Part shown: positions 1 through 47,790 of the stretch, piece after piece | Numbering within the stretch: position 1 is the first letter of the stretch | Layout of the letters: each line of letters starts with the position of its first letter | Source of the DNA: Lingula anatina | Lineage: Eukaryota; Animalia; Brachiopoda | Direction of reading: 5' to 3' | DNA length: 64,000 bases | NCBI GenBank assembly: GCA_051362555.1 | Contig: CM120642.1 | Location: 23,002,001-23,066,000 of the forward strand | Translations under genes and position numbers: made by a program | The notes under the pieces: model-generated | Told to the model about the DNA's origin: nothing | Databases searched by the model: none | The model's input: the letters and a program-made list of their open reading frames with translations, nothing else

Positions 1-1
1 A

Positions 2-361
2 AGACGTGTTGTTGAGAATTCATTTGGGATCCTGGGAAACAGGTTCAGAGTATTCCTAACTCCAATAAATTTGAATCCTGACAAGGTCACCAACCTAATT
101 CTAGCTGCCTGTTGTTTACACAACTATATGGTCGACAAGAACAAGCACACATACCTAAATGTTCTTGATGTTGAAACTGGTGAAAGACACGAAATTGCAG
201 GGGGAGTATGGAGATATGATAAACAGTTGATTGGAATACAACCTGCACAGGGTCGTAATGCAACAAATGATGCAAAAAGACAGAGAGAACTATTAACATC
301 ATACTTTTCATCTGAATATGGCGCTGTTCCATGGCAAGAAAAATTATTGGGACTTGAGTGA
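2..361 (+). CDS. PIF/Harbinger transposase, C-terminal part (HARBI1-like DDE nuclease); 5' end outside window
   Basis: Frame from base 2 reads RRVVENSFGILGNRFRVFLTPINLNPDKVTNLILAACCLHNY...GAVPWQ, matching the Harbinger catalytic-E motif (RxxVENxFG) and the ACxxLHN motif. Confidence 0.9.
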   Translation, partial: RRVVENSFGILGNRFRVFLTPINLNPDKVTNLILAACCLHNYMVDKNKHTYLNVLDVETGERHEIAGGVWRYDKQLIGIQPAQGRNATNDAKRQRELLTSYFSSEYGAVPWQEKLLGLE

Positions 362-1998
362 ATAAAGGACTTGAGTGAATAAAGGTTGAAACCAATTATT
401 GTAAACAAGCATCACAAGGAGAATGTTATTTTGTAATTTGCAACTTCATGTTCAGTGAGTTAAATTTTTGAATTTGACCCTAAAGAATGTTTGTTTTGAA
501 TGTGGTGTTTCTCCAAAAAACTTTCTGATTCACACATTGTTTGTTTTGAATGTGGTGTTTCTCCAAAAAAAACTTTCTGATTTATACATATACTTGTATC
601 CTATTGGTTAAGGACTATTGTTATATCTATGTTTTGATATTCAAGCTTTTTTTTAAAAAATGTGAGACATGTTTGTATATACTGTCCATACTCCTATAAT
701 AAACAATGGGTCAGAAGAATGAATTCTGTGCTTTTGAATGAAAAAAAAAATCTGTTGTACAGAAGTTGGAATACCATCTAGAATGGATAAATGCTGTTGC
801 CTTGGTTATTAAAAATTAATAGTAGTTTTAAATATATTAGTTTGAAGGACTGATGTATCAATGGGAATACATAAATATCTAAGTATCATTTAGCATGTGT
901 AAAATTAAGATGTATATGAACAGGCATAAGACTTTGATGAAAGTATGTGAATTACATTGGTTTTTGACAAGGTTGACAAATAATTTGCAAAGGAATGCAC
1001 AGTAAAAATTTTAATATTGAGATGTTGAACTTTTATATAATAGTTGAAAGTTACAAAGTTGCAGTTTTTGATGTTGAATTTTTATATTTAAATAATAGTT
1101 AATTTGAGTTCCAAGGTTGCTAGAAAGGTACGAGGTAAGTTGGCAATGTAACTTTTGATAACTTACAATGCTGTATATATTTTTGGTCTTGTACATATAT
1201 GAAAATGGGCATAAGAATATGATAAAAGTATATGTATGACATCTATTATGTACATGGAATGACTATTTGACAATGTTGGCACAAATAACTGGTAAACAAT
1301 ATGTTAGAAAAGCATCAGTTGCTTAAATGTGTAGTGTTCGTACCCTCAAGGCATAGCTGAAAGGGGCTTTCTGTTGATTTGAATGTAGCACATAAAGTAA
1401 TTGATATCGTGTGTGGAATCCTGCATAAATTCCACATTGTGTAGACACTGTTAATCAACATGTTATTATCTAATTTGCAGCTAACCTGTATACATAAATA
1501 TTATTTTCTGTAGAGGCCCATAGGTAGGCCTATGCCTGGGACAGATACATATCACCTGTTAATATTGCACAACAAATAGTATGTAAATAAGTAGCAGCCA
1601 CATGTACACATAGATTCCCTGTAGATAATCTGTGTATAACTTGAAGCTTGTCCATAATAAATACACTTTTTGATCTGAGACTGAAGATGTGAGGTGTTCT
1701 GTTATGCTTCTCTGTGCACGTAAAGTGGAAGACTGAGTCATGTCGGAGCCCATAGATTAGTTTATTCGTTAATGGAAATTGATACACTGAAATTCAGTAC
1801 AGTTATAAATTAAAGTTAAAGTCATTTTAGACGGTTCACAACAGTGTGCTAGAAATTTGGGGATTTATAGTTAAAGATGTTAATCTTCTCATCAGTTACA
1901 GAATAAAAATAATGCATCAGAGTCCATTTTTTTACTCAACATGACCCTTACTGTACTTGGTACCCCTGATTGTGAAACAGCAAATAGTGCAGGCATAT

Positions 1999-2970
1999 TG
2001 TAACGATTGATGAACTTGTAGCCCTGAGATTCCATAAAATGGGAAACAACTCGCTGCTGATATCACTCAATAACAGGAAGTTATGTAATGTAATTAAAAT
2101 GATTCATTTACTGTAATTGGAGGCCAATTTACGATTATTTTAATTAATTGAAATGGACTTCGAGATCTGTTGTACTTATAATTGCCATTAAGGACACCAT
2201 TATTTGGGCGGCTGAACTTTAGTAGTTGAGGAACTGAAGAATGCCTTAAATTTACTCACAATCAAATATGGCACACGCCCATATAAAAGGAGTGTAACAG
2301 TAGCATGCGGCAGTCAGATACTTCCAGTATCAGGCTCACCACACCTCTCAGTGGCGAAGCTCTGTAGTTACTAGAAGATTCTCTCGACCTGCACGGTAGT
2401 ACGCCGATGAGGCTAACCGAGGTGTGCTATAACTGCAATAGAGAGATTTTACTTTCAGCCGAGACGACCCGCCAGCCGAAAGGACTTTCTCGTCGGGGAT
2501 TCCAGCTGAGCCGGGCCTCCAGCCGAGACGACTTTACTGCCGGGGATTCCAGCTGAGCCGAGCCGAGCCTCCAGCCGAGAAGACCTTCCTGCCGGGGATT
2601 CCAGCTGAGCCGGGCCTCCAGCTGAGATGACCTTCCTGCCAGGGATTCCAGCTGAGCCGGGCCTCCAGCCGAGACGACTTTCCTGCCGGGGATTACAGCT
2701 GAGATGGGTTTCCAGCAGAGACAATCTTCCTGCCGGGGATCTCAGCCAGCTGAGACTACTGTCCTGCCAGGTTCCTATCCGAGACGACCTGCCAGCCAGC
2801 CGGGTTCCTAGCTGAGACAGCCAGGTATGCAGTAGATACAGCCGAGCACAGACAGTGGTGATCCAGCTTTTTCTGAGGGCCGAGTTAAGTCACCGTGCCC
2901 GCCACTTACCATAAATACAGAGAGCCGGACTTGTATTTATAGGGAGAGACACTAGGGAGAGCACGCTACA
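1999..2970 (+). mobile_element. Solo LTR (Gypsy-like), 972 bp
   Basis: TGTAACG...CGCTACA termini (6/7 inverted match), 4-bp TSD ATAT at 1995-1998 and 2971-2974, TATAAAA at 2282, no coding sequence. Confidence 0.75.
2456..2820. repeat. GC-rich ~47-bp minisatellite inside the solo LTR
   Basis: Repeated GCCGAGACGAC...CCGGGGATTCCAGCTGAGCCGGGCCTCCA units at ~2522, 2574, 2621, 2668, with degenerate flanking copies. Confidence 0.9.
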
Positions 2971-3021
2971 ATATTATATAATTGTGTTTATATTATTATA
3001 CATAAAGAAGAATCTACTTAC

Positions 3022-3659
3022 ATTGTCCAGATTAGATATTGATGGCCTAATTGAAATGTACTGTTCAAGAAATCCATCTTGTCTTTTTGGCTTCTTCACT
3101 AGGCTTTGGCTTCTTTGCCTTTGTGTAGCTGTTACGAAGGGATCTGATTTTGGCTTTCACCAAAGAAGCTGAAAATGTAAATAGTATAACATTTAGCAAA
3201 AAAAAAAAAAAAAAAAGAAGAAAAGAAAAATTTTGGAGGGGCAGGTAGGCCTAAAAAGGTGTCAGTTCAGGAAAATCCCCTTTTTAAAATAGTTTATATT
3301 TTTTTATAGGCTTATCTTTTTAAAATTTAAACAGTTTGACATTAAAATGCTTGAAAATCATTCATTGTTTGACGTGCACGCTGAGGCTATGCCTAATGCA
3401 TTGAACGAGAGCGTGATTGAATTTTAATTTTTATTCAAACAACAAGAACTTGAAAAAGACAACAGACATGCTGAAGCCTAGCAATTTCCTCACCGGTTTG
3501 TTCCAGTTGATTTGCTATCTTTTCAATGGCAAGGTCACGTTTATCTTTATCTTTAAAGTCAGAAGACCTTATGTCATACAAGCATGGATGTTCTTGCCAT
3601 ATATCAACAAACTTGTCTTCCAATATGGCCTCAGACACGACCTCATTGGGGGCTGCCAT
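3022..3659 (-). pseudogene. MADF (Myb/SANT-like) DNA-binding partner gene of Harbinger; exons 3659-3494 and ~3168-3022, frameshifted in exon 2
   Basis: MAAPNEVVSEAILEDKFVDIWQEHPCLYDIRSSDFKDKDKR..., GTGAG donor at 3493, TTTCAG acceptor. Exon 2 reads SLVKAKIRSLRNSYTK, then DKMDFL and IRPSISNL in shifted frames, then a GTAAGT donor. Confidence 0.8.
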
Positions 3660-3898
3660 TTTTGTCTGTTTCCGGCTACCAGCACATGCGCACTGTTGGC
3701 ATGGCGTGAGCAATCGGCACTTGCACCCCGCACACGCTGAGACATTTGCCTCAAGAGACCAAAAAAATCAAACACGTGAGAAATTTTGCTCAGCCGCGCG
3801 AGAGGCAAAAATCTCACCAAAATACCCCCGCACACGATGAAAAAACGGCGCAGTGCAAGTGGCGCGCGCCAAATGCTCACCATGTGCGGGCCCCTTTA

Positions 3899-7196: not shown

Positions 7197-8325
7197 CAGA
7201 AAAAGTGAAAACATTCACAAAAGCAATAATTGTCCTTAATGAAATACATGTAGATTGTAGTCCAACAGGTGAATATAGGGAAGTTTGGCGTAGACAAACG
7301 ATGTTTTATGGCAACGGTTAACTTAATTGATTTCATGGGCCGTTGCGAACTTTCATCAGCGGGGGGAAACGGCATCTGGTATTACCAGGTTAGGAGCGTA
7401 AACAAGGTATTGGCATCTGGAATTCACTGTATTAAGCTCCTTAAAATTTATCTGTCCATCGGGGAGACCCGGCAGCTTTGAAGCGTCACTTTTGCTGAAA
7501 TTTGCAGCACTAAATCCGGGACTCTCTTTTAGGCACGCACTGCCGCATTTATTCAGTAAATTCTCTGCGGAAAGCATAGCATTCAAGATTGATTATACAA
7601 GTTGCGCCTCGCTGGAAATTTTTTCGTTCCTGCCACCTTCCCCGTCTCCTCCTTCATGCAGTTATTCACAAATGATAAACATGGATTCATAAATTCAATA
7701 TATTTGAAAAGTAAAATTATTTGCTATGTTTAATAATTATGTATTTATGTTGGGCGTTAACGGGAGTCACCCTAACAATTTTATGAAAAGGAGTAAAAGA
7801 GCGGAGCGTAACAGATTGTGAAATGCGTACCGACATACCATGGGCCCAGAGGCCCAACTGCTCCATGATAAGTTCTGAAAGAGAAATCTGTACACAGGGA
7901 AATGTCCGTAATACATCCTCTACATAATTAAAGGTGGGAAATTTTAAAAAGCGCCAAAGAAGACTGAAAAATGTTTAGCCCCAGTGTCCCCACTTCCCTC
8001 GACTTCTAGACACCAGACTAAATCTATCCCTTTGCACGCCCAGGTAGACACTTAACTTAAAGATAAGATTTGGGGGAATCAGTTTATTGAGTTGGCGCTT
8101 CTTTTACAAGACCAATCGACTTTGTTGCCCCAACCCGGTGATCCCCTCCCCTTAGCCATGGAGACACATAATGGCCAGTTAACTCTGGTAGTTTCTCAAG
8201 GTAAAAAACCTCAGATCTCTTCCCTCAGTGTGTGGACCACTGCTTTCCATACTTTTTATGTCTATTTACAGATTGAAGTATCCTCACGAGTTTCCTAATT
8301 TGTTGAAATATGCAGAGGACATTAA

Positions 8326-9525
8326 CTCATTGTCCCCTACCGCCGTCATTTGCCGTCGATGTTTTCCAGTTTCTATCCCGAGCGTCGTCATTTGACGTCG
8401 TAATATTAATAGTACCCCTTCCCGACTGCCGTCGTATGACGGCATCCAATATGGCGCCCCCCTTGCCTAGCGACTTCATATGACGGCATGAGAAAGAAAC
8501 TACGATTGGTAAGTTTTAAATAGCTTGTTTTGTGATTGGTTGTTGGTTTTCTTTTAGCCAATAAAAATTAGAATACCATAGTACATAATGTAAACATTAT
8601 ACGGGCCGCGGGAGATACGCACATGGAGGAAATACAAAGAATTTTTGAGGAGAGCTCTGGGTCTGAATTTTCTGGATTTAATAGTGAAAGCGAGTCTGAC
8701 AGCGATGATTTTAGCGATATTTCTTTGAATAACACCACAAATACAGAGTCTTTTGATGAAATAGATAACAGTAGTGAAGATTTTAGAAGAAATCAATGGA
8801 AAAACGATCTAGTAGGGGTGGATAAAGAGCCTTTCTGTGGCGAGGAGCCTGGATGCACACACGAACTGACAGGTGACAAAGATGAACTAGATTTTTTTAA
8901 ACTGTTTTTCTCTGATGAGATACTGAATATTTTGGTTGAAAATACCAATTTATATGCAGCATATAAAGGCGCCAATGACTCCAAGTGGAGAGAAATTTCA
9001 CTGCCGGAACTAAAAGCATGGCTTGGGATCAGGGTTGCCATGAGTATCTTGTACCTGCCACGCTACGACCAGTACTGGTCAAATGATTACCTTTTAGGTA
9101 ATCTTTTCATACCAACAGTGATGACCAGGGACAGGTTTGACAAGATTCAGCAGTATTTTCATGCAAACAAAACATGGGGGGGAGATCTCCCAGACAGAGG
9201 GGAACCTGACCATGACAGACTGTTGCATGTTAGGCCCATTCTTGACATATTAAATCAAAAATGCCTTCAAAATTATAATCCACACCAAAACACCAGTGTG
9301 GATGAAGGTATGATTGCATTCAGGGGACGACTAGGCTTTCGCCAATATTTACCAGCCAAGCCTACAAAATATGGGATAAAAGTTTGGGTGAGAGCAGACC
9401 CTGAAAATGGTTACCTAAATGAATTCCAGGTAAGTTTAATCTAGTATTTTGATCACACAGTTAGTTTAAATAATTACTAGTATGCTTGCAAAACTTAATA
9501 AGTGCTATGGGTGTTTTAAATTTTT

Positions 9526-9577
<52 letters not shown>

Positions 9578-11495
9578 AGAATAGAAACAAGACTATGATG
9601 TTCCAAGTGAGTGCAAGTTTATTATTATTATTTATTATTATTATTTTTTTTTTTACAGATTTACACTGGTAGACAAGGAAATCGAGGTCAGCCCGAGATT
9701 GGTTTAGGTGCCAGAGTTGTACTAGACCTCTGTGAAAACATCAGTGGCGTCAACCATATTGTTAATATGGACAATTATTTCTCTAGTCCACAGTTATTTG
9801 AAGAGTTGCTGGATATGAATATCTATGCCAGGGGGACAGTGAGGTCCAACAGGAGGGGTTATCCCAGCAACCTTCTTCCAAATAACTGCGTTAAGGTTCA
9901 AGGGGAGAACAGAATGGTACAGAAAGGAGAAATGATAGCAGTGGCATGGAAGGACAAGAAAGTTATACATTTCCTTTCCACTGCAGAGGATCCAGCATCT
10001 GCAATTGGCTACACAAACAGAAAGCAGAAAACTGGAGAAATTCTGCGAGTTTCTTGTCCGGTGACAGTCTCAGAGTATAATGCCTACATGAATGGAGTGG
10101 ACAGGGCAGATCAACTACGAAATGAGTACTGCACCTACAGAACCTCAAAGAAATGGTGGCTCTATGTTTTCTGGTTTCTGTTTGATGTAGCCAAATGCAA
10201 TGCCTTCATCTGTATGAAAGAGTCACAGAACCACATCCTTCAATCAAAATCTGGAAGGGTTTTGCCTCGTACTCTGATGGATTTTACCATGAATTTATCC
10301 AAGAGGCTCATCGGAACATATCGCAACGGTCGGAAGAGAAAACTTACCTCAAATGTAGACCCCCAGGGCACAAGTCACTTACCTCGGAAAACTGTGAAGG
10401 CAGGTAGATGTAGGCAGTGCAGCAAAAATGGACAAAGAAGGGAGTCCAGGGTACAGAGCTCTGGTTGCAGTGTCAGCCCGTGTATTGACTGTTTTGAACC
10501 ATATCATCAACATCTGTAACTATGTCACCTTTATTTCACATGTGCCAAATTAATTTTATTTTTATAATCTCTTGAACTGAACATGTAGAATGTCTTGAAC
10601 TTGAACATGTAGAACTTTAACATGTAGAATGTTGGTACATGTATTGAATACATTTTATCAAATACTAGTATTTTATTTTCTTCTATAAATTTGCGGGTAA
10701 TTTGTATCTGCTCATTGCTCACTGTAAGTAGTCAGTATATACTTAAAGAAAATATTAAATATAGTTTTTATAGTCACAGTTTTTGTAGTCATAACATATA
10801 TAGTGTAGCTTTTTTGTGTCTACACAATGTACATGCTCATTAAATGCTCATGTTTTATATCATATATTAAGTTTTCTTTTCAGTATTGATTATAAAAACA
10901 ATATTTATACTTATATATTTAGAAAATTGCATTTTTACTATTGTTTATCAATCCTTTGTGCCAATTATTTTATATTTGACAGTGTGTTTATTTTAGTTAT
11001 AAAAGTCAGATAACCTCAACAGTATTCGTTGTGAGATTTGTGGTGCTAACTGCATTATGAATTAGAAACTTTTATTGTTATCTGGTGCTCATGTTTGAAT
11101 TATATTTTGTAGAATTTTATTAAGTCTCTACTTTGATACTTAATGATATATTCTCAACAAGTATTACATTTTACATAGATTTAATAAACATTTTTTTACT
11201 TATATTCATTGTTTTGTATTACAGATCAAATACTTCAGACTTGATCTTCTTCATTCAATAAATAACAAAATCCTAAATATGTTCAGTTATAAAGAATTTT
11301 AAATTAAACAAATTTCATGTCTTATAAAGCCCAACAAAATGAAATAAACAAAACAACAGTGATTGAGGGCAGCCATATTGGATTTCCTTAGGGATATGGG
11401 AGAGTGCAGACAGTGGCGCCACCACCTGGTGGTGGCCAGATTTGGTATTAATGGCTGTAGGGCATAGAGCAGTATTCACTACAGGGGACAATGAG
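8326..11495 (+). mobile_element. Full-length piggyBac transposon, 3170 bp
   Basis: Perfect 13-bp TIR CTCATTGTCCCCT / AGGGGACAATGAG, TTAA TSD at 8322-8325 and 11496-11499, subterminal CGTC-N4-GACG palindromes at 8385-8490. Confidence 0.95.
8623..10519 (+). CDS. piggyBac transposase (PGBD4-like), 2 exons 8623-9429 + 9659-10519, 555 aa
   Basis: Catalytic DDD in SVDEGM, NMDNYFSS and MNGVDRADQ; KPTKYGIK motif; C-terminal Cys-rich domain; phase-0 GTAAGT...TTACAG intron joins EFQ|IYTG. Confidence 0.93.
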
Positions 11496-11992
11496 TTAAA
11501 GTTTTGGCGGGTCTTAGGGGGGACTGGCTGGCGTACGACCGCACATACAGAAGTAACAAGGAGAGGTCAGGTGACCCCTGGCAAGATATTAATTGGGACT
11601 TGTGGAATAGAGCACTTCTCAACTCCCGCCCCCAATTTAGCCCTCAACACCGCCCCAGAGCCTTAAATAAATACTCAAAGCACAGGCAGCCCTTTCGTAA
11701 GTATTTCCCAGCAGGGGTATGCTTCAAGTTTCATTCAGGAGGGACCTGCTCTGGGAACTGTGGTTATGCCCACAGATGCTATGTCTGTTCAGGTTCCCAC
11801 TCAGCCGCAAAATGCAGGGCTAACACTAATCATCAAGAGGGCGGACTACCTCTCGCCCAGTCAACTCTGCCCTCCCAGCTAGAACCACCAAGACCCCCAC
11901 CTCAAACTCACAAAGTTCTCAAAACGCCAGTAGACCCTAATAAACTGAATAGTTATTTGTCTGGCTACCCTGCATTGTTAAGACGTAAGTAA

Positions 11993-12892
11993 GTGGCGGG
12001 TTTTAGAGTAGGTTTTAGGCTAGGCCACATTCAATATTCTTCTTCTGCTTGTAATCATAGGTCTGCCTTGGACAGGCCCGAAGTCGTGGATCAAAAATTG
12101 TCTTCCGAACTTAATCTAGGTAGATTAGCTGGTCCTTTCAATTTAAAACCTTTTTCCCATTTGGCCATATCGCCCATAGGTCTACATCCAAAGAAAGATC
12201 CTGGCAAATTCAGACTCATTCATGACCTGTCTTTTCCCCCCGAGGGTCAATCGGTCAATGATAGTATTGATAAAGAATTTTCCTCGGTGCAGTACCACAA
12301 TATAGAGAAAGCAATAGAACTTATCAATAAGTCTGGTCGATCTTCATGGCTGGCTAAGACGGATGTAGAATTGGCTTTTAGAATTCTCATGGTCCACCTT
12401 CCTGATCAACACTTGCTTGGTTTCACGTGGAGAGGTCAGTTTTACTTTGACACTCATCTGCCAATGGGTTGCTCCTCCTCATGTAAGATATTTGAGATGT
12501 TTAGCACTTCCCTCCAATGGATTGCAGAAACGAAACTTAAGGCTCATTCTATGGTTCATATCCTTGACGATTTTCTTTTTATAGCCCCCACCTTTGAGAA
12601 ATGTCAAAAGGATCTTAATAATTTTTTGTCGTTCTGTCAGGACATAGGTGTGCCTATTGCAGCTGAGAAGACTTACGGCAGTAGTAAAATGCTGCCATTT
12701 GCAGGCATTGAACTGGACACTGAACTGATGGAAGCTCGACTCCCTGAGGATAAGGTTTCCAAATGCAGGTCCCTTATACATGACTTTCTTGGTCGGTCTA
12801 AGGTTACCCTGAATCAATTACAGTCTCTTTTAGGGCTTCTTAATTTCATGTGTTCAGTAATTTTACCAGGTAGGGCTTTTCTCCGCAGATAG
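11993..12892 (+). pseudogene. Reverse transcriptase of DIRS-like element A (truncated before RNase H)
   Basis: PKKDPGKFRLIHDLSFP, KTDVELAFR, LPMGCSSSC, HILDDFLF, FAGIELDT, PGRAFLRR. Confidence 0.92.
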
Positions 12893-14610: not shown

Positions 14611-14839
14611 AAAAGTAAGTGGCTAAAGCAATGCACACAAGTAGGCTGTAGCACATGGCCTAATCACATGGATGCAACCATACTTAGCAACTTATGCAAA
14701 TGAGTAGCTTAAGTTTATGATGTACAATCAACAACTGATGCAATCTCAAGCAAAGAGGACAAACCTGATGCTTACCTTCCTCAAGCTGGAAAAAAAGAGG
14801 AAGGTCAAATTACTATGACTTTCTCCCCCGCCCACAAAT

Positions 14840-34005: not shown

Positions 34006-35944
34006 GAAGCCAGTAATGCCCCCGACAGCTTAACGAGAAGACTCACACAAGGGAAATAATATGCATTGTCACTGTCTGACATTAGGCTAAACACAAAGAG
34101 GATGTTCCTGCAAAATTATTACAGAGGGAGGGCATATCTATATGCTCTATATTAATGAAGCCATTGTTGCCCCCAACCCTAGGGTTTAAAATTGGTTTGG
34201 GGAGAGAAAAACAGGCATCAATTTACAGGGGGTGATAAAATCCTTAAAAAAAAATTAAAATAAAACATGTGACCAAAATAGTTACATTTTTCTTAAGGTT
34301 TACTGACACAGTAACCTGTTGCTGTTATTAGATCTATAGATATTTATAACACCACCAGTAGCTGACTGTTTTATATACAATGAAGCAGCTTGATATAGGA
34401 AGGTGACGTAATGCCTGGGAGAGGGGGGGGGGAGGTGTCATGTTTGCCACTTTTTCATTGATTGAAATGAAACAAAGGTGGACATTACTCCAAAATTATC
34501 GTGCCGTCTATCTACAACATGAATTGTTACAGAAGATTTTTGAGAAGTAAAGTCAAAGGTTCAACTGAGCAAACAAAGTCAAATATTGGCCAGTGTTCTG
34601 CTCTCTCTCTGTCCTGAAAGTGAACGGTCAGACTGTGCATGGTAGCAGACCCAGTCCTGAAATGTCAGCTGTATCTTGGATGACACTAGAGAAATTTCTG
34701 GAAAAATGGACAACCTACAGTTATTTCCACTGGTTTGAATATAAATTTCTATACTGTTTGGATATATGCGTGCGGCAACTTTTATTAATTCAAGACATGC
34801 TGAAAATTTCCGGACGCCAGCCCTTGACTCACCAATCTGGGAGTTAGGCGGACTATAATTTTGGACTCACCTAGTGAAACTTTCTTACGAAATATTTAAT
34901 TTCTCAAACTCTGTAATTTCACCTGAAATAAAAAAAATAAAACAAGCCATTATCATCTTCACTCACTAAAAAACGATGGGGCAGCCATATTGAATAGAAA
35001 CGCAGTATATGGTAGGCATGCAGCATTTACTGTCAGCTGAATGGTCATAATTGAGGCACAGAAAACATGTGGTGTGCTATTTGTGTGAGGATGGAGGTTG
35101 CATGAAACTTATTTTTTTTCCGTCTACAATTACTCATGGAATAAACCTTCAAAATGACCAGTTCAGTAGTGTTTTTGAACCCTTAAACATGCATTGTAAT
35201 AAGTACTGGCGTATACTCCAGTTTCTGGTTGCTGCGGCCATGAATCTCTCGCTGTGAGAATCAGCAAGATCAGTTTGTTTGGGTAATAAAAGCACATGTG
35301 CGAGCATAGAAAATAATGGCATCGGCTGGAGGGTTAAATGTTTTATCGTTAAACGAGGATGAAATATATAAAATTGTGTCAATGTGGAGCGTAGAAGCAT
35401 TGAAGAAATATCTTAGAAGACGAGAGCTTTCAACAGTAGGAAAAAAAGAAATGTTAGTGGCCAAGGTAAGTCCAACGAAACACCTCTTATATTTGCTACT
35501 CAGGAAACTTAGTGCACTGAAATTTTAAGTAACTATCATTAATGAATTATGTGTGGTATTATTCCAACTTAGGTTAATATGTAAAACTGCTTAGCATAGA
35601 GTTACAGAACTCTGTATGTGAAATTTCAGAGTAAATTGTTTCTAATACCCTTTAATCCTAAAATTAGAATAATAAACTGCACATACCTACACTCGGCTAT
35701 CGATCAGCTATGGTAAAGACCCAATGATTTTCAAGCTTTGATTTAAGTAATTACAGACTATATTATGTATTTAACATTTTCTTAATACAAGTACAGCTCT
35801 TTATTACAGTGAAATACTACAAAGTCTCACAAATGGCTTGTATTTTTTAGGTTTATGCAGCTGCATTAGCCAATGTCCCAGTAACTAAATGTGCCACTGA
35901 AAGAGCTGAAGAAATTAGTAGGACATGTCAATCCTAGCTAGTGA

Positions 35945-38031
35945 TGTAGATTGCTTCGGCCCTTTCCCAGTAAGAAGAGGAAGATCTGAGTTAAAACATT
36001 ATGGGTGTATCTTCACCTGCCTCACGACACGAGCAATACACATAGAAATACTTGAGAGTCTTGACACAGACTCCTTCCTCAATGGACTCAGAAGGTTCAT
36101 AGCAAGATGAGGAGAGCCAAGGACGATCACCTCAGACAATGGAGGTAATTTCATAAGCGGAAATAAAGAATTGTCACGGGAGATGGATAAGAAAAAAATA
36201 ACTGGAAACCTTCTGAAAAAAGGAATCATTTGGAAATTCAATCCACCATTGTCAAGCCACATGGGTGGCATATGGGAAAGACAAATTCGAAACATAAGAA
36301 AGACGTTGACCTCTCTCATGCGAGAGCAGACACTGACCTACGAAACCTTGCACACCTTGATGTGTGAAGTCGAGGCAATATTGAACAATAGACCCATCAC
36401 TCCAGTCAGTGAAGATCCAAATGATCTGAAGGCACTAAAACCCGCTCAACTACTCATGCTGAATGATGGACCTCTCCTGCCTCCATGTGTTACAGAACAG
36501 AAGGACATTTACAGAAGACGCTGTCGCCAGGTACAATGCTTGGCAGACACCTTTTGGCGACGATGGACCAAACAATATTTGCCGGAATTACAACGTCGAA
36601 TGAAGTGGCACACAGCATCACCAAATCTGTCTGTAGGAGATTTGGTACTACTGGTGGAAGAAAATATGCCAAGGAATCTCTGGCCTTTGGGCAGAATAGT
36701 GCAAGTAAACCCAGGAGATGACGGACTTGTGCGTTCCGTCAAGTTAAAGACAAGATCAACAGTCTTAACATGACCAGTAACCAAGATAGTAGTATTGGAA
36801 GGGAAGCTTTACTAGTTTTAAATTTATGACAAATTTAATGGCGGGATTGTAACATTTTTATAATGTTAGAGTAGTTCAATTTAGTCAGTTACCCTTAGCT
36901 ACAAACACAGGCTATCAAGTCCAGGTATCAGATGTCCAGCAGCTGAGCTGGAGTGCTTAACCCACTTTAAGTGCAAATGGTCATCAAAAGCTAATCAATC
37001 AATTGTCAAAGATACGCGTTTTTGGGAGTAGAAGCAGTTCCACCCATTAGAGAAAAAATCCAACAATTTTACAAGTCAAAACAGATCATCTAAGTTTATC
37101 TTTATGAAAATTGAATAGGCAACGACACCAAGATACCAATATTTTATATCTTAATGAAATTTTAAAGGTATATTTTAATGATAGACAACTAACACCCTCA
37201 GTGCTTTGTTCTCTGAGCATGCCACATGGTTTAAACTGAACTTGCTTCTACAGATAAATTTTATGTACATTTCTACCTGATTTTCTTCTTATAAAGTGCA
37301 CATGATTAACATCAAAGGTTATATAATTATTACTTGTCACAGCATTTTCTAGAAAAGTTAGTAAAAAAGCAATTTAATTAGTTTATCAGGTTTTAAGTAG
37401 CATCATATTCATTTTCTTTTTAGATTGAAAGTTATTGTAAGTAGAATTAAATGTATGTTTGCTAAAGAACATATCTATTCTATAGGACAACTTAGAGAGA
37501 TTACGTGCACAAGGGCAAAAGGGTCCAAAGTTGTGAGTGTTAAACTGTATTTACTGGTTTATTTAGATTAGCGACATGTTATTAATATTCCATATTTTAT
37601 GTTACAAATATTATATTAGAATTAATTTCTTATATTTTGATATATTTCTATGTCACTACATTCATGGTGTGTTAAATGATTCAATTTAATTAACTGAGTA
37701 GTGTCATGTTACAAGTTGAGTGTTATTGTTTACTTTGAACCACTAGTAAGTGTAGGCTGTGTGTACAAATTGTCACATATAATATTCTCCAGTCAGTCTG
37801 AGTACAGTCAAGACGTGTTAGTTTAAGACAATGTAACAAGGTCAGAAAATTGGTTAGACATTTTATTTTTCTTTGATTTTTGTTTAATTATTTTATTATT
37901 TCAGATTCACGGTAATTTGGTATTAAAATACTTCGGTATTCTGGTACTACCTATCAGTGAATAAAGGTTCCATCATCTAGTTACATCATCTTGTTACGTC
38001 ATCATTTCGACAAATGCACGCAAACTCTACA
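35945..38031 (+). mobile_element. 5'-truncated BEL/Pao retrotransposon (integrase + 3' LTR) with 5-bp TSD AGTGA
   Basis: [47 protein letters not shown]...DDGLVRSV. TSD at 35940-35944 and 38032-38036. Confidence 0.9.
36848..38031 (+). repeat. BEL 3' LTR (~1184 bp)
   Basis: Starts TGTAAC after the purine-rich tract GGCGGGAT, AATAAA at 37960, ends TCTACA at the TSD. Confidence 0.8.
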
Positions 38032-38929
38032 AGTGATAGAGGATTCCAGACCCATTCATGGTGGATTCTTGGACAGGAGAACCAAAGAGCATCGGGTCAT
38101 GGCCTCCCATCACAATCTATGACATTTCTGAATTTTTAGAAGAACATGATGTAGCTATATCAAATGCCAGTTTAAGAAAATGTCTGTTGAGGGACTATAA
38201 AGAGCAGAAAGCTTACTCATACTTTGCCTCCAAATGAAACATTTCAATGTCCCAAATTCTACTATTATATTATTAAGAGCAAATATCACTGTCTCTCAAA
38301 GGCTAAATGACCCACCACACCAGGCCTGGATTGCAAGCAGTAAGGATGGCAAAATATTGAGGGCCTATTGTACAGGAGTGTAATTATGTGGCTGCCATTT
38401 TGTTTAAAGTAGAGTATGGGTGGAGATCTGGGCTATGCCAGCCAGCTTGTACATCCAAAGAATGTGTTTGACGAGCACCAAAGCAGTCAAAGGCCATCTT
38501 GACCCCAAAAAGAATACAAGATATGGCTTGGAAGTCTTCCTCTATGGCAAATAAAGGTATTGGCCATTGGTCAACTTATTAAATTCCCTTTGTGCTAACA
38601 GACAACAATGTGCCCTAACAAGAAGTGCCGAGGCAAAAGACTTTAAGCCGTGTCTAACACTGTTAACAATGAGAGACTGAAAGTGGAAGAGACAGCAATT
38701 GAAGAGGCACAAAGGCAGCTTAGGACCACTGGGTCTGCTAATTCTAGCAGGATAGACCATTACTTGGGATGGCTTGTCCTTCCTTTTGGGAAATATTTTA
38801 ATATTTTGTAAAGGTAAGAATTAGTGGACTTCATGTATATCTTTATTTTCATATTTACATTTAGAACAACTATGTCCTCAGGCAGATTCACATCCCACTC
38901 CCATCCCACCAGCTTGGTCACCAGCCAAC

Positions 38930-39285
38930 TTGCTGAAGACTTGAACTACACACTGCGGATAGCACTTGCAAAAAACACAGCAAGGATCTACTCCAAGACC
39001 AACTGACTATTAGCCAAATTCCAACAACAGACAGGTTTCAGTGCTTTCCCATCCAACCCAACAGGCACTTGACTTTGTTCACTCAATTCCTAAGTTCACG
39101 TTACAAGACATCCTCAATTAGAATGCATATATCAGCTCTAAGTTACAAATATAAAATGGCTAATATTCCCAACCCAACTGCCTCTTTCATTGTTAAGCAA
39201 ACCCTACAAGGTATGGATAGAAGAACCCCATCTATGGATACAAGGTCTCCAGTGACACTAGCAGTACTAGCCAGTCTTCGTTGTG
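38930..39285 (+). pseudogene. DIRS-type tyrosine recombinase N-terminal fragment
   Basis: ALAKNTARIY...LFTQFL..YKTSSIRMHISALSYKYKMANIPNPTASFIVKQTLQGMDRR...DTRSPVTLAVL. Confidence 0.8.
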
Positions 39286-39670
39286 GCATGAAATTGAGAT
39301 TTTTCTTTTATATAAAATGTACACATTAGCATGTCAATTCCTTTTTCTTTTTTCATAGATGTGTCACGAGGGGAGATTTCTCCACATCTGCCTCCAGGTG
39401 GCGCAGGCTGTCCAATCGTTGCATTGCTGTAATATCTTGCACAATGACTTAAATACCGACAACTTGATGGTCCAGATTCTATCACAGAAACATCACTTGT
39501 TTAGTCTTTTTGATAGAGAGAAAAGGGATATTATGTGATCTTGGAAGTTTTGTAATAATGTATTGGAAGAAGGTATCTTCTATTTAAAATGTATGCTGTA
39601 AGCATTTCTTTTTCTGTTTGATTCAGTAATAAATATTCTAATAATATTATCATTATAAATCTTATTTGCA

Positions 39671-40640
39671 GAACATCAAGACATGTGGAACAGTTGCCAG
39701 CAGGGTTGGCAGACTTGTTTTAGAGTTGCCAGAGGCCATACAGGAGGTGGCAAACAATAAGTTGGGACTGGCAGTAAAGGCATGCCTCCAATACAAGGCC
39801 AGTCAACAGCCAAGGGCTTGGGATACTAGATGCATGCTTGGAAAGTGCTATGATGAAAAGGAGTTTTTTTGGTGCTAATATATTTTAGAAAACACTTTAA
39901 TATGCAGACACCATACAAATATATTGATACTTTTGTTGTGAATGACTTTTCTGAAAAGAAAATAGCAACTTAATTACTGAAAAATGGACACTACATTTAT
40001 AACTAGAGGATCAGAGAGGCGATACCACCTCCAGATATTGTAACACTAGCTGAAGTAAGCACATTCATATTCCAATTCAATTATTGACTGCCAATTTACT
40101 CCTTTTCCTTATTGAGAAAAGTAGCCATATTAATTTCAGTTTCATAAATTTTCTTGAATTTATTTTGCTTCATTCTGTGATCAATTTACTAATGTTAACC
40201 ACCTTTTTTTCACTATCAGTTAAAAGAGGGAATTGTGAAAATAACAGATTTTGGTGTGTCAAGATTAAAGGAAAAACTGCGCAGTGAGGCCACCAAAAGA
40301 ACCACAGTAGGAGGGGGGGAAAGGACCTGGGACTCCCCTTTACAGGGCTCCAGAGCTGTGCAAGACCAGAAATTTAAAAGATCAACCATCCTGCGATATC
40401 TGGTCCCTGGGCTGCACCATCCTACATGTTTTAGTAGGACATGTGTGGCCTAAGGGATCAGATGAAGTTCAAATTTTAATGTTACAGCTTCAAGAAGAGT
40501 TGCCAGAGGCCATACAGAAGGTGGCGAACAATAAGTTGGGACTGGCAGTAAAGGCATGCCTCCAATACAAGGCCAGTCAACGGCCAAGTGCTTGGGATAT
40601 TAGATGCATGCTTGGAAAGTGCTATGATAAAAAGGAATTT
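39671..40640 (+). pseudogene. Fragments of a second, different protein kinase (C-lobe end duplicated)
   Basis: VKITDFGVSRL at 40235. ELPEAIQ..ANNKLGLAVKACLQYKASQRPSA occurs at 39722-39878 and 40497-40640, with the 3' flank also duplicated. Confidence 0.7.
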
Positions 40641-40765
40641 TTTGGTGCTAAAATATTTTAGAAACCACTTATTATATGCAGACACTGTACACATGTATTG
40701 ACACCTTTGTTATGAATGAATTTTCTGAAAAGAAAATATCTATTACTGAAAAATGGACACTACAG

Positions 40766-41360
40766 TGTCGTGTATGTATGTAGCTTAGGCTTAAAGTCAC
40801 TATCAAGTCACGCATGCCCATAACAGTGTATGGAGTTTAAGGAATAAAGTGTGGAAGCGGACAGTTCGGTGTTACGTTTTCCTTAGGCTTGGAGCCTGTA
40901 TTTAATGATAAATATCCTCTCAAGGGTACATAAATTGGGACAAGGATAAACACAAGACCGTTAAGCAAAGGGAACATGGGGTTCCAGCCATTGGATTGTG
41001 TTGAAATGGCAAATGTTGGCACATGGTGTAAATGGTGGATTCGCGCCTTAACCTTGTATGCAGACAGCAAGGGAGTTACACTTGCCGGCCAGAAGAAAGC
41101 CCTGCTACTGCCTTCAGCAGGATTATGGATGCAGGATATTTATTTCACACTGCCTGAAGAGCAGAAAGCTGAAGGGGAAACGGAGTATGACACGATGGTC
41201 AGAATTTTAAAGGATTATTTTACTCTGCAAGTGAATGTTTCATATGAGCGACACGTGTTCAAGAATATGGAACAAGTATGACTGAAATTTTGCTCATTAA
41301 TTGAGAGTACAGGCAGAAACGTAAATGGACATATCAGGGACCAGATAATAGAAAAATATT
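40766..41360 (+). mobile_element. Gypsy retrotransposon relic (probable short LTR + gag fragment 40976-41281)
   Basis: W..WIRALTLYADSKGVT..QKKALLL..AG..MQDIYFTL...LKDYF..QVNVSYERHVF is typical Gypsy gag; TG-starting segment with AATAAA upstream. Confidence 0.8.
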
Positions 41361-41991
41361 CGTCAAATTATCTGCAAAAAAGCTGTTAAGATGCACTAAG
41401 ATCAACAGAATTGAAACATTTTGGGAATTGAAGCATATTATTCCATCATTTTAAGCATACGCCGTGCCTTTATAGTCCAAACGCCAGACTGTCAGCAAAT
41501 CAGATAATACTATAGAAAAGGAACGTTTGCAAATAAACCCCCAAAATAAGCCTTGCAGTATTTTATTTCTATCTTTTAATATAGTTAGTTTTCCTGATTT
41601 CAGCTGTCTATGATATGCAGAGCCACTTTTAAATAATCGTTTAAAAATAGTCCAAGCACTACTAGGAAGATATGTTTTACATAATCAAAATGCACGAAAG
41701 TCCAGGATAATGTGTTCCATTTTTTGTATCGTTAAGTGTTTTATTTGCAAGGTAAACATGTCGTACCCATGCAATGGCATTACACACCGCATTGTAATAT
41801 GTAGGCACATCGCAGAGAGTTCAGGCAATGACGTCACAACTGGGTAATTACCCCGAACAATTAGGCTAACGCTTACAGTGGGTAAAACTTAATGGGCAGG
41901 TCTAGAGAGAAGAGGGGGGTCAGATTTTATTGAATTTAGGTCCACAGAATGTTGTATTCCCCTTTAATGACACACGTCCTCTCGAGGTTAC

Positions 41992-42320: not shown

Positions 42321-45300
42321 AAAACTGGACATATTTGAAGATATGAGGGGCAGTTTAAAAAATATGAAGCGCAGAAAATATGCAAAGTGCAGTTCACTAT
42401 TTGTAACAGTGATGTATATCATTAACATGCATACAAAGATTTCTGAACAAATCCCAACATTGAGAGATATGAATACCCACTTCCGCATAAGATTCCTCAA
42501 ACTGAAACTTGGTCTTATCTCATTGATATGTCTACTACACTACATAATCCATGAACTTACAGAATTAAAACTTAATAAAGTACATCTAAAAATTGCCTTT
42601 GAATTTACCAAAGGAAAAAAATTAATTGTCAGTGTATAGATCGCTGCTGACATAGTTCACAATTCGTAACACCAATAAATTATAGTGCAGGCCACTGTAC
42701 TTGTAACGTTACATCTGTTGTGTGATCAAATAACTTTTTATAGGTTTTTGAACTGAGCATTTACTTACAAAATGTGAACAATTTTCTTTCATAATAATAT
42801 TTTCACTATTTGCACTTTAATCAAAATTCTTAAAGCAGTCTTGCTATTAAGCTTTCTAGTTACCATTCTCACATATGATGCAGGTCTGGTTTCACAAAAT
42901 AACATAACTTTCACTGTGTAATTACAGTGTCTATGCAAGTTTACACTAGCACCCATAATATTTGTAGCTCATAATTCGATTTCTGCAGATAAAATATCAA
43001 GTAACACTAAGCACATAGCAATTATACATTCTACTACATAAAATGAAAATACACACACACAAGAAGGTGTAAATTCAAAATCTGCAACTTTTGACATTCA
43101 CATATCATAAGTGAACAGGGGGTGGGGGGTGGGGGGAGAGAAGGCTCTGACAAACCTTGCCTGAATTCTCAACAACTTGCAAGTTCAGTCACAACTAGGA
43201 AGCCAGGCTTGTCCCAGGTGGGAAACTCCTGTCTGTGAGTAAATGATGGTGGTGGTACAGCATTCTTCTCCTCTGTATCAGTGGTATTAGAGATGGGTGA
43301 TGTCTAGGAGTAATTGTCATGTCTATCTATATTCAGCCTCCCTTCAACCAGCTGTAAAAAGAGTAAGAACATGATTATATGTGCTAATTTCTGAGAAAAA
43401 TCAGCTTTACATGAGAGAGACAGAGAGTCAATCATAAAACATCTTAAATAATACATGGTTATAAAGTTTAATAATGATCAACACGTGCTATTACAGCAAA
43501 CAAAGAAATCAAATGTCTTAAACATTTCATTTTAAAAGTAATTCTTCTCTGTTGAAAAAGTATCATTAGAATTTGATTAGATATGTCTGAGAAAGTTCGA
43601 TAGGAAATGGCCCCATCAGTAAACTCGTTAGCGTATGAGAGTGCGTAATTACGCGTTGTTTTGCTGTTTTTACGCATTGGCTGGAGCCCCAGCGCGTACG
43701 AATACGCACACCTTTGGCTTTGAAGATCGGCGAGGTTGACCAGTCCGTTGACTGTTAGGTCAGACTCATGTTGAAAATGTCATAATTGATTCCCAAGTGT
43801 CTCATTTTTTTCTTAAGATATTTGAATTACCCGACTAAAACATGCTTCTTCTTTCACTGACCCGCAGAGGATGACGTAATCTTCTCTGATTGGTCATAAT
43901 ATGCAAGTTTTAGGTCAAAGCACGTGTGCCTCTCTTTAGTATAAACAAGGTATGAACAACGATGAAATGATCGTTTTTTTATTCACATAATTGTTCAACA
44001 TTTTAATTGAGCAACCATACGTTGAGGACCAATTTAAATCACTCGCCCAGACCAAATACTTTAGGCCAGCAACCCTTGTGACTTTTGTAGTTTTAGTCGT
44101 CAGAATAAATTTTTATTCGCATTTGACGAGCGGGCGACCGGGAATTTCCAGCTCTGCTGATTACCAGTGATGACAAAATGACGAGAAAAAGGAAAAGCAA
44201 AGGAAAAAAACAACAGTCAATAAAAAGGTTTTGTCATGCAAGGTAGGCAAAGTTATTTACTATAGATTTCAGAGTCCGACATACCTACTTGCGATGGTTG
44301 CGTTTCGCAACTAGTTTTATCAACCGGGCAACTAAAATTTAGCTGGTAGTTGCCCGGAAACGCAAGTGACTTTCGGCTGTTCACTTGCCCGGAAAATTTG
44401 AAGTGTAAAATTTATTATCACAGACAAAATAGATTGTTTATTATTGGCAGTCATTTGCCGGTTGGAAACAAAGTGGTTTGCAGCAACCGGCTAGCTCCAG
44501 ATTTGGCCAGCTTAGAAAACAGTTGAACTTGAAGTGCTGCGCTAACAAACATAAATAAAAATTATCTTTCAACAAACTGTGAAATAATATTTCTAGTTAT
44601 TATTTACAAATTGAAAGCAAAGGTTTAATTTTTATAAACAATTTAGTAAAACTTAAAAACGACGGGTGCCTAATGTTCCCGACTTGACCTACTTTTTGTC
44701 GGCATCAATTTTAGGGAGAAACACTAGGAAGAGTAAGAAGTGTGAACATTTTGATTGATTAAAATGGCTAAATATGTAAATTTTGTGTCCCTTCTCAAAT
44801 AGTATACTAAAAAATGCTTGTTTGACAGAGACGGATACTGGGTGACTACTTGTCAGTGTCCAGACATTTTGGCGCCGTTCTCTATCTCTCCCTCTCCCAA
44901 CTATTACAGAGCGCTTGTTTGACCTAGTTTTTTTAAAAACTTTACTAAGGAAGCAGTTAGGCCAGGAGCATTTTTAAATCTCAGTCAAGAATAGATTGTA
45001 AATTTTTGGCTATGAAGTGCAGTCGTACTTGTTGTATTTTGATTGTTTCTGTGGTAATTTAAAAGCAATGTAAAATCTCTAATAAATTACATGTTATATT
45101 TTCACCCCCCCCCCCCCCCCACTGATTTACTAGGTAGCACCAGTTACTTTTACTCTAGTCAAAGAAACACAGTATCTAGTCGTGACCTATGCGTGACCTG
45201 TCCATTTTGTTTTTGTTTTCTTTTTGTTAAATTGCAATAATAAAAGATTTTGGATAAAAGGATAGTGGGTTATTGTTATGAAAGTGAACTGTGTGATTGC

Positions 45301-45434
45301 ATGATTATTAATACACAAAATTACACCTTGATGAGCATTTTTTAATTTTACCCCTTCATTTTGAAAATTACCCCTTCTTTTTTTGGGCAAGGGGTACGGT
45401 ACTCCCTTAGAAAAATCCTACCGAGTGCACTGCC

Positions 45435-45570
45435 CCATTCAGAATGGATGATCCAAGTACTTTCTGATTCCTGGGGAGACCATCAGGAATTGGGGGCATC
45501 CCTTTTGGTCTGTGGTCGACCATATTAAGTCAGCCGATCAAAAAATACTTGGATCATCCATTCTGAATGG
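45435..45570. mobile_element. Small MITE / foldback
   Basis: Perfect 25-bp inverted repeat CCATTCAGAATGGATGATCCAAGTA / TACTTGGATCATCCATTCTGAATGG. Confidence 0.75.
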
Positions 45571-45799
45571 CCCCCGTGACAGAAAATAGACAATACCCAT
45601 CATAACCAGAAAAGTGAACAGTGTAGATATGGGTTTTATTTTCACTTCACTTCAATTAAGGTTTTGTTTTGAAACAGTTTCGCTTTTTATTTTAATCACA
45701 GACACAGGTAGAACTGTTGAGAGAAGAGTAGAGAGGGGGGATTACAGATAGATGTAGAGAATTCATGAGAATGAAATCAATTATACCCTTCAACTTTTT

Positions 45800-47750
45800 A
45801 ATGAATATAAACAGAGGTCAAAAAGGTTACACCAATGTGCCTGGAGCCTTCTACAAACCATTTGATGATGACATAAAGTTATATATCCTGTCAGCCAAAT
45901 TCATCAGACAGGATGTACACTGCTTGTGGCAGTAAACTTCAATCACTAGCTGCTGATGGTCCAAGTCTGATAAATATGCATACAGATACCTGTAAACAAA
46001 GAAGACATGGGCATGCTTTCGATCTGAATAAAAGTATAAAACTGCACTTACTGTATGACAAGCAGAAAGTAGTCTGCCAAATCCTCCATGTAATACTCTG
46101 GCAGTATAAGAAATAACATTGGCACATCTTGAGGAAGGGGCAATGAGATCCTAAAACATATTTGTTTTTATTCACCAACAGAAATTGGTAAAATTAAGTC
46201 TTTTTAAAAGACTGGATTACAATTAAAAGTCTTTAAAAAAACAAAATTTAATGTTTTTAAGACATTTTCATTGTAACTAGATAAGTTTACAAAGTAAACA
46301 TGGGTACTGACGTTGTCAAACAGAGAGGTTGTGAAAGAAAGTTCAGAGGAAAGGCATACAAGTGAACACATACGCACACATGCAAGCACATAGACATACC
46401 TTGCTTAGAACAAATCAGCCTGAAGTAGATATTGCATAAGACAGAACTGTAGCATGCTGACTAACAACAATTCTGGGAAACTGCGATACTAAGGGCACAT
46501 CTTGCCTTGCTGTAGTATCTGGAAATTTATTTTGTGTAAAATTCTAATATGTAATGGCAATGTCCCACTAAATTTGAACAAAACTGATTTCATCACCTTT
46601 TAAATCAACATTCTACATGCACTATCTGTAAACTACTGGAGAAAGCATATTTTTGTACCTAAAAAAATGAGCAATTTAATGGAAAAAAAATTAATACAAT
46701 GAATTATAAATTTGTAAGCAAATGCCAGAAAAATAATTTATTAAGCTATTACCATAAAATGACATCAAGGCTCTACAGTGCTTTTACTCGTTCTTAAGTT
46801 CTCCATCATTTTAATAAATCTCTTTTCATATAGTCCACTATCTGCAGCAATTTCCATTGCACTTCCTTGTTTTCCATCGTCTTCATCATGTGTGTGAACA
46901 GGAAGACGATGAGAGTGAAGTGACGAAATAACATTCTATCAGGAACTTGGCATCCTGCCAGATGTGTGATGTGTCCTTGTCTGAAATGTATATTTATTTC
47001 AATAATAACTATAAACGTGAATGCTTTTTCCTACATGCAGTTTGGCTATGGCATAGCAACAAACAAACAAACAAAAAAAAACGAGGCAAAATTTTCTACC
47101 AAAAACCATGGCTGCTAATAAATGAAAACTTGGTGCTAATCATACAAGCAAATGGCGAGCAGTTCGCTCTTTGTTCAGGACATTTATATTTACTGATTAG
47201 GTGAAATGAAATGAAAAGTTGCTCAAAGGTCAAATTCAAGACCACATTAGGATTGCCCATAATATGACTTCCCATTTTTTTTTTTTTTGTCTTAAAAGAC
47301 AAGCAGATGACAAAACGTCGAGGAAACCCTACACCCCTAAAATTTCAAGTAAAGCAATAACTATTTAATAAAACCCGAGTTCATGTGTGTACGTTTAATT
47401 TTATGTAATATCCTAGAAGACATGCATACGGCAACAACATGGCCCATCTCCCTACAACCCAGCCCAGACAAGACAATCGACACGAAGACTTAATTTTAAC
47501 AGCTAGTTCGTTACAAGCAAGGAAGTTATTTCCGTGAATTTTTACCTTTTCACAGCTCAGTATTTTACAGTTCTATCTCCGCTGATTTGATTCTCTACTG
47601 AATACTTCAAGTTTTCGTTGGGCACATTTCACTTCGCGCCAACCGCAAGGCCCCTGTGATCGCTACTCTCGAATACTCTCGTTCATATCTCGTTCAAGCA
47701 CCCCGAGTTTCAGCTTTCATATCAAGGGAAACTCGCCTCAATGACAGTTA
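45800..47750 (-). ncRNA. Putative spliced long non-coding transcript (exons ~47750-47546, 46980-46753, 46518-46400, 45989-?)
   Basis: Alternating consensus sites AAG|GTAAAA, TTTCAG|, ATG|GTAATA, TTCCAG|, AAG|GTATGT, TTTACAG| on the - strand. Only short ORFs in the exons. 3' end unknown. Confidence 0.5.
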
Positions 47751-47790
47751 CGCAATTTCTACGTTTTCGGTTAACTTATATAAAGTTATT
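47735..47790 (-). promoter_or_regulatory. Putative Pol II core promoter
   Basis: TATATAAG at 47782-47775, Inr-like TCATTG at 47744-47739, Myb-like TAACCG and TAACTG between them, CpG-richer first exon. Confidence 0.4.

Follow-up and report, generated by a model that had tools for sequence, protein, structure and literature searches.

The window analysed here is a stretch of 64,000 nucleotides from the brachiopod Lingula anatina, to which all positions refer. Its left part, the relic zone (1–43 kb), holds coding relics of transposons and kinase pseudogenes, and recognised relics or repeats occupy about 52% of 1–43.35 kb. A boundary promoter lies at about 47.7 kb and gives rise to a spliced RNA of the minus strand that points into the relics, which are almost all on the plus strand. 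To the right of this promoter, the Pfam scan of open reading frames (ORFs) detected a kinase and a G protein-coupled receptor (GPCR) only and no transposon matches. The locus is considered here as a candidate uni-strand cluster of PIWI-interacting RNAs (piRNAs).

Direction of the relics

The Pfam scan covered 557 of the 562 stop-to-stop ORFs of at least 45 aa, the five omitted ones lying within a 337-bp array. Between 1 and 43 kb, 11 transposon or kinase ORFs were found on the plus strand (DDE_Tnp_4, DDE_Tnp_1_7 in three ORFs, RVT_1, THAP, hAT dimerisation, SAP, DUF5641 and Pkinase in two ORFs) versus two on the minus strand, both of which are exons of a single MADF gene. Ten weak matches to unrelated families (E 4e-4 to 0.01, below the cut-off; seven on plus, three on minus) were discarded as noise. 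Homolog search, tblastn, tblastx and Atlas added further plus-strand relics, namely the transposase at 17.3–18.2 kb, the DIRS B element, a DIRS gag, a reverse transcriptase (RT) end at 25.2 kb, a kinase piece at 34.6 kb and the N-terminus of a tyrosine recombinase; the plus-strand relic at 26.9 kb was weakly supported, by Atlas only. No further minus-strand relics were noticed when the minus-strand ORFs of at least 42 aa between 12.8 and 43.4 kb were read by eye, two repeat arrays being skipped.

After merging duplicates and split elements, 14 independent plus-strand units were left in addition to the Harbinger element (transposase on plus, MADF on minus). The resulting direction count of 15:1 had a nominal p of 5.2e-4, and the core defined by Pfam only, without Harbinger, gave 9:0 with a nominal p of 0.0039, both values applying to this one chosen window and boundary. 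The strand bias of the coding relics is real. In the length of stop-to-stop ORFs, the plus bias began only at 120 aa or more (10:3), with 25:18 at 100 aa and 7:0 at 160 aa. An earlier, sequence-only reading had counted 18 relics on the plus strand with MADF alone on the minus strand (p about 8e-5). The direction of the bias and the position of MADF as the sole minus-strand relic were retained, with the supported count lowered to 15:1. Two relics that it had listed as separate Sola elements turned out to be one duplication (91.6% identical), and the kinase pseudogenes, indeed on the plus strand, were traced as three pieces to just two copies.

The boundary RNA

RNA sequencing runs X13, X16, X17 and X19 were mapped to 29,001–49,000, and X13, X14 and X15 to 42,330–47,900, with about 6% of each run being read (25% of X19). 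The spliced minus-strand RNA starting at about 47.7 kb was present in three of the six runs (X13, X14 and X15, one study), and no junction reads of it were found in X16, X17 and X19. The intron at 46,981–47,545 was crossed by 26, 15 and 22 reads in the three runs and the intron at 43,352–46,752 by 43, 14 and 21 reads, both having CT..AC ends. By direction, these junction reads summed to 63:0 and 78:0, and in every one of them the first mate was on the plus strand, which fixed the direction of the library. A minor alternative exon with its donor at 46052, a CAG|GTAAGT-type sequence, was joined to exon 3 by 3, 2 and 2 reads.

The depth of exon 1 in the three runs was 13.7, 5.9 and 14.1 in the bin 47538–47723 versus 0.31, 0 and 0 in the next bin. 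Coverage ended at about 47,720–47,750, just downstream of a TATA-like TATATAA at 47,776–47,782, and the region was CpG-rich (CpG observed/expected ratio (o/e) of 1.46 at 47560–47800). In exon 3, the depth was about 44, then 12, then 6, with 0 in the opposite direction left of 43,073, and a candidate minus-strand poly(A) signal, AATAAA, was located at 42,202. The longest ATG-ORF in the first 1,465 nt of the joined exons was 55 aa, the 5′ 1.5 kb contained eight short ATG-ORFs of 25–55 aa, and Rfam gave 0 matches in the window. A minus-strand boundary promoter with non-coding exons had been predicted from the sequence, and the reads bear this out.

Three further candidates for splices or ends were rejected. 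The exon-3 depth drops at 43,118 exactly where a G-run with poly-G loose ends occurs, so that the drop is probably technical, the 43118/45103 joints on the apparent opposite strand are artefacts connecting a G-run to a C-run, and the 46151/46405 skip has non-canonical ends with four inserted letters and likely reflects an allele difference. Within intron 2, a CpG-rich island (43,500–44,500, o/e 1.06) with cAMP response element- and CCAAT-like motifs, noted by eye, had reads on both strands; it might act as a second promoter or represent a dispersed repeat.

Read-through and the nature of the locus

Read-through of the boundary RNA into the relics was counted in 16 of 19 bins over 29.0–41.7 kb, three bins of multi-copy repeats, seen in all runs, having been dropped. 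In X13, the summed depth of the 16 bins was 8.11 for minus-strand RNA versus 0.95 in the opposite direction (about 36 versus 4 reads), and the read-through depth corresponded to 1–4% of the exon-3 level. Coverage falls from 5′ to 3′ in the poly(A) libraries, as might be expected of a precursor that is rapidly processed.

The CpG content changes at the same point. The median CpG o/e was 0.37 in the 47 one-kb bins left of 47 kb versus 0.77 in the 16 bins right of 48 kb, and the best change-point was found at 47 kb, with none of 2000 permutations being as strong, although adjacent bins are not independent of one another. The change thus lies where the RNA starts and not at the edge of the relics (41.5–43 kb), suggesting that a single long transcribed unit has been methylated over a long period. 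The step would be equally compatible with a piRNA precursor, with a long gene and with methylated repeats. Inside the otherwise depleted region, a CpG-rich patch was noted at 6,000–6,800 (o/e about 1.0 over 6–8 kb), which might mark a recent insertion or a promoter within the region.

The reading preferred here, with a probability of roughly 0.6, is that the locus is a candidate uni-strand piRNA cluster fed by read-through transcription from a long non-coding RNA (lncRNA), known at present from its relics and from the head of its putative precursor. A sample-restricted RNA polymerase II promoter at about 47.7 kb would make the spliced non-coding minus-strand RNA that the junction reads document. 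A fraction of this RNA would, as the sparse reads over the relics weakly indicate, continue through the 43-kb stack of antisense transposon and pseudogene relics. By analogy with known pathways, the read-through RNA would be processed into phased piRNAs, which, being antisense to the mRNAs of the transposons, would silence those families, and antisense insertions would be kept by selection and sense insertions lost. Such a scheme supposes that one RNA spans the relics, that phasing by PIWI and Zucchini takes place, that the germline is the tissue concerned and that selection rather than an insertion preference set the direction. In an extended form, judged unlikely, the locus would be a general-purpose trap on a duplicated head: the complete piggyBac would be a fresh capture, an RNA sharing exon 2 would belong to a family of duplicated cluster promoters, and the antisense copies of a host kinase would make the locus a regulator of host genes as well as of transposons.

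Several observations weigh against a piRNA cluster. The read-through is thin and comes from a single run (X13), and reads mapped to relics at 94% identity may derive from other copies. X17, although without junction reads of the spliced RNA, gave 2.23 versus 0.35 in the minus direction and X16 gave 1.11 versus 0.47, so part of the read-through signal may stem from other copies. The dropped bins hold the strongest opposite-direction signal (14.7 and 6.6 at 30.3–31.7 kb), also in non-expressing runs. A non-coding repeat family occurs in both orientations (21.1–22.3 kb versus 30.4–31.6 kb, 85% inverted; the inverted copy spans 30,390–31,584 and another copy lies outside the cluster at 62.2–63.3 kb). 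A paired test of CpG loss inside versus outside was not significant (11 versus 7, p 0.48). Poly(A) signals were not depleted on the minus strand (AATAAA 51 plus and 63 minus, ATTAAA 32 and 53), and U1-type sites were not enriched there (GTAAGT 32 plus and 14 minus, inflated by the 337-bp array). Finally, exon-2 reads differ from the window at 6–9 sites each, most of the listed differences being fixed in the three runs, and such reads could come from a diverged allele or a paralogue.

This last point, together with 24–29 reads per expressing run that join the 46980 acceptor of exon 2 to another upstream exon outside the window, leads to the idea that the reads stem from a paralogous locus and that the promoter and exons of the window are silent or decayed. 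The other upstream exon was not found in the window at 3 mismatches in 20, and 20–30 reads per expressing run diverge left of 46,942; these reads probably represent either a paralogous RNA that is co-expressed, which is the simplest reading, or a first exon specific to one haplotype. However, exon 1 and exon 3 reads had 0–1 other differences in the cleanest cases, every splice site in the window was canonical, and the best DNA runs share only 0.3–0.6 of 31-mers, so high polymorphism is expected. An origin of the reads from a paralogous locus, with a silent or decayed copy here, is considered highly improbable.

A somewhat unlikely alternative is that the relics sit in a long intron or 3′ extension of a minus-strand gene or lncRNA, where the splice and poly(A) signals of sense insertions would disrupt the host RNA, and that such insertions were purged with no piRNAs involved. 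In mammals, an antisense bias of intronic long interspersed nuclear elements (LINEs) and long terminal repeat elements is established, with DNA transposons excluded there (PMC3088655). Gene-body methylation has been described in invertebrates, and CpG depletion from the promoter onwards would fit such methylation of any long unit (PMC8330077, PMC8549274). Exon 3 was joined by reads to no position within 29–43 kb; a splice leading out of the mapped stretch may still lie among loose ends beyond those listed. An intron of a minus-strand coding gene had been named in the sequence-only reading as one of several findings that would speak against its proposal, and no splice into a coding exon was seen within 29–43 kb. 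Exon 3 runs unspliced for more than 1 kb, and the eight short ATG-ORFs would form a poor leader for a coding gene. The near-complete bias is shared by DNA transposons that are unrelated to one another and by the pieces of kinase pseudogenes, and the RNA's own introns (43.4–47.5 kb) are without a recognised coding relic.

The promoter could also drive a short lncRNA of about 1.6 kb that ends near 42.2 kb and lies by chance beside a transposon graveyard, with the direction of the relics due to chance, local duplication and the choice of an extreme window. The AATAAA at 42,202 and the depth of 1–4% beyond it agree with such an end, several relics are duplicates or split copies, and p values of 1e-3 to 4e-3 are expected often across very many scanned windows. 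The bias nevertheless persisted once duplicates were merged, the CpG change-point is at the start site and not at the relic edge, and the position and strand of the RNA were predicted ahead of read mapping, with both matching. A chance neighbourhood is regarded as very unlikely.

Comparison with known piRNA clusters

The Lingula locus would be a candidate brachiopod example of the uni-strand piRNA clusters described from a slug and a planarian. Most clusters of the slug Arion vulgaris and of planarians are reported to be uni-strand, and in one of the top clusters of the slug the piRNAs come from the minus strand while the transposon fragments lie on the plus strand (PMC11615739). The Lingula locus shares with them a lophotrochozoan host, dense transposon fragments on one strand and RNA from the other strand. 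It differs in what has been recorded: in slug and planarian the piRNAs were sequenced and the promoter and exons of the precursor are undescribed in the text consulted (PMC11615739), whereas the Lingula locus is known from the head of its putative precursor. The locus may also resemble the mammalian pre-pachytene piC-DoG clusters (Zim2, TMEM181), in which a spliced transcript reads through past its last exon into antisense transposons (PMC11615739). The cargo of these is described as LINE-1 and endogenous retroviruses (ERVs), whereas that of Lingula consists of DNA transposons, DIRS elements and kinase pseudogene pieces, and the Lingula host RNA, unlike the piC-DoG hosts, is non-coding in the part read.

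The sequence-only reading had called the locus flamenco-like. As for layout, the comparison with Drosophila flamenco fits, with a single edge promoter, one strand and transposon fragments opposing transcription, and no homology is implied by it. The content is different. Clusters of the flam type are described as biased specifically for Gypsy/ERV, the bias in follicle cells being due to Gypsy/env elements, and the cited ones span 227–1,085 kb (PMC10643416), whereas the Lingula locus has mostly DNA transposons and DIRS, and its roughly 15 units include a single unverified gag piece and a single piece of BEL type. Closer models than flamenco appear to be the uni-strand clusters of the slug and the read-through clusters of mammals (PMC11615739).

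In Lymnaea stagnalis, clusters are reported to be 59% transposon and enriched in Kolobok and hAT DNA transposons and in young elements (PMC6128900). The share of recognised repeat in the Lingula locus is similar, and it likewise holds a putatively Kolobok-like relic, a hAT relic and a complete piggyBac. The main text of that paper, which deals with Lymnaea and Crassostrea gigas, never uses the word strand, which leaves the direction bias without a counterpart there. Both PIWI groups are stated to occur in every lophotrochozoan phylum examined (PMC11114477), and Capitella is reported to have no piRNA locus above 20 kb (PMC8915122).

No brachiopod piRNA cluster was met in titles or abstract openings of the Lingula and brachiopod piRNA papers listed, the supplements of which could hold such data. 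If piRNAs are confirmed, the promoter and exons of a piRNA source would have been mapped in a phylum that showed no cluster in this literature, and clusters would be predictable from raw sequence. The model of a spliced host RNA plus read-through would then extend from mammals to a lophotrochozoan, in which the elements captured, almost all in antisense, would be DNA transposons and DIRS instead of gypsy elements. With its complete piggyBac, the locus would allow a direct test of the trap model.

Relic catalogue and neighbouring genes

The features of the relic zone and of the boundary RNA are collected in Table 1.

Table 1. Relics, repeats and boundary-RNA exons in the Lingula anatina window
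Feature	Position	Strand	Evidence
Harbinger-type transposase, 3′ end	2..361	+	Pfam DDE_Tnp_4 E 6.6e-5
MADF gene, two exons, sole minus-strand relic	3068..3767	-	Pfam MADF E 1.5e-8, 0.0041
DIRS A: gag-like frame broken by piggyBac, then RT	8056..12889	+	RVT_1 E 2.5e-11
Complete piggyBac, 3,170 bp	8326..11495	+	Pfam DDE_Tnp_1_7 E 2.4e-42, 1.6e-35
DIRS B relic, broken gag-like and RT pieces	14232..16056	+	tblastx to DIRS A RT 35-50% identity, E 2.6e-54
Second piggyBac fragment	16975..17303	+	79% identical to first piggyBac; Pfam
Transposase, three exons	17327..18204	+	17 relatives, 59-75% identity; tblastn
THAP domain relic	19570..19825	+	Pfam E 4.3e-4; tblastn E 2e-8
Partial duplicate of the 26.9-28.0 kb relic	19901..20492	+	91.6% over 605 bp
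Non-coding repeat with 337-bp and 161-bp tandem arrays	21074..24613		
hAT dimerisation domain relic	24735..25058	+	Pfam E 1.1e-9
DIRS RT end / RNase H-like relic	25193..25632	+	tblastx to DIRS A 50% over 24 aa, E 3.5e-5; RNase H label by eye
Transposase-like relic	26856..27970	+	Atlas 0.97 to unnamed eukaryotic clusters, low recognition score
Genomic copy of the neighbouring kinase, pieces 34,588-34,790 and 39,286-39,517	34588..39517	+	tblastn
SAP(-SWIM) gene relic, split by BEL fragment	35334..38470	+	Pfam SAP E 2.6e-7; SWIM part by eye
BEL/Pao-type integrase end fragment	35922..36790	+	Pfam DUF5641 E 2.1e-28; PHROG transposase E 2.8e-4
Tyrosine-recombinase N-terminal relic	38818..39280	+	Atlas 0.95; Phage_int_SAM_1 on 26% of members
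Second kinase relic and local duplicate	39722..40764	+	Pfam Pkinase E 5.7e-10; duplicate 90%
Gag-like relic, last coding relic before the exons	40934..41451	+	by eye
Exon 3, unspliced to at least 42,330	42330..43351	-	depth, joint 43351/46753
Minor alternative exon	46052..46235 (right end unmapped)	-	donor 46052; joint 43351/46052 CT..AC
Exon 2, 228 nt	46753..46980	-	joints 46980/47546 and 43351/46753
Exon 1, 5′ end ~47,700-47,750	47546..47750	-	read depth, joint 46980/47546

The relics are of mixed ages and nested at several levels. The sequence-only reading had described short, diverse and nested fragments; the nesting is real, and the piggyBac is a complete element. It is flanked by TTAA on both sides (8322–8325 and 11496–11499), has perfect 13-bp terminal inverted repeats and an uninterrupted 555-aa two-exon ORF, and lies within the gag frame of DIRS A. 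The gag piece of DIRS A matched that of DIRS B (E 9e-5); the DIRS label is presumed from motifs and was returned by no search. The MADF gene is convergent with the Harbinger transposase and probably paired with it in one element. Mollusc relatives of the 17327..18204 transposase carry THAP (PF05485) or PF20700, and IMG/VR contained no relative of its segment 17681–17830. This transposase is presumably Kolobok-like, a name returned by no search, and the 26856..27970 relic may be of the Sola type, a label that no search confirmed; a homolog search with 26856–27152 gave no match.

The two pieces of the kinase copy showed 73% and 79% identity to 54.6–55.2 kb, introns included, and in one of them 37 of 148 21-mers matched the neighbouring intact kinase at 2 mismatches or fewer. 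They are 4,496 bp apart here versus 86 bp in the intact gene because nested insertions intervene: the gap holds the SAP gene relic, itself split by the integrase fragment, and the recombinase piece. For the integrase fragment, the BEL name, returned by no search, is likewise presumed. The gag-like relic at 40934..41451 had no Pfam, PHROG or credible PDB match (two PDB matches, both E 1.5). More generally, the Sola, CACTA, SWIM, gag, RNase H and recombinase relics were left unnamed by Pfam (E up to 3, 30 chosen ORFs) and PHROGs (25 ORFs), and the earlier labels CACTA exon, Gypsy gag, SWIM, Sola and Kolobok were not returned by any search.

Some minor features were also noted in the relic zone. 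A GC-rich block at 2,216–2,950, between the Harbinger transposase and MADF, contains a TATA-like motif together with a 47-bp tandem array and possibly represents the terminal repeat of a retroelement. Same-direction copies with a Ser/Thr-rich plus-strand frame, 81% identical and 22 kb apart, are located at 3,900–4,432 and 25,820–26,358. Degenerate 21–23 bp tandem arrays rich in GCAAGCTTGC palindromes occupy 29,029–29,400 and 32,090–32,500. The 102-aa ORF at 29,820–30,125 (+), ending at a GT donor, had no Pfam or PHROG match, and its label as a CACTA exon is unconfirmed.

Right of the promoter, the kinase at 54,309–55,756 (-) showed 99% identity and the GPCR at 59,187–60,479 (+) 98% identity to Lingula anatina proteins, and the nearest Lingula proteins of the two carry consecutive accessions. 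The kinase is intact-looking, divergent and composed of two exons, and a 96-bp tandem repeat precedes its kinase domain; it is annotated as B-raf-like in Lingula, and its closest non-Lingula relatives show about 30–40% identity. The GPCR belongs to the rhodopsin family with a GHSR-like annotation, has a small upstream exon at 57,121–57,177 (+) and five Lingula paralogues at 34–37% identity. Three copies of a short element, about 175 bp long and ending in terminal inverted repeats, are located at 48,491–48,664, 52,624–52,807 and 58,744–58,923, in both orientations and with ATTGG flanks at the first copy. This family of miniature inverted-repeat transposable elements was heavily represented in every RNA run.

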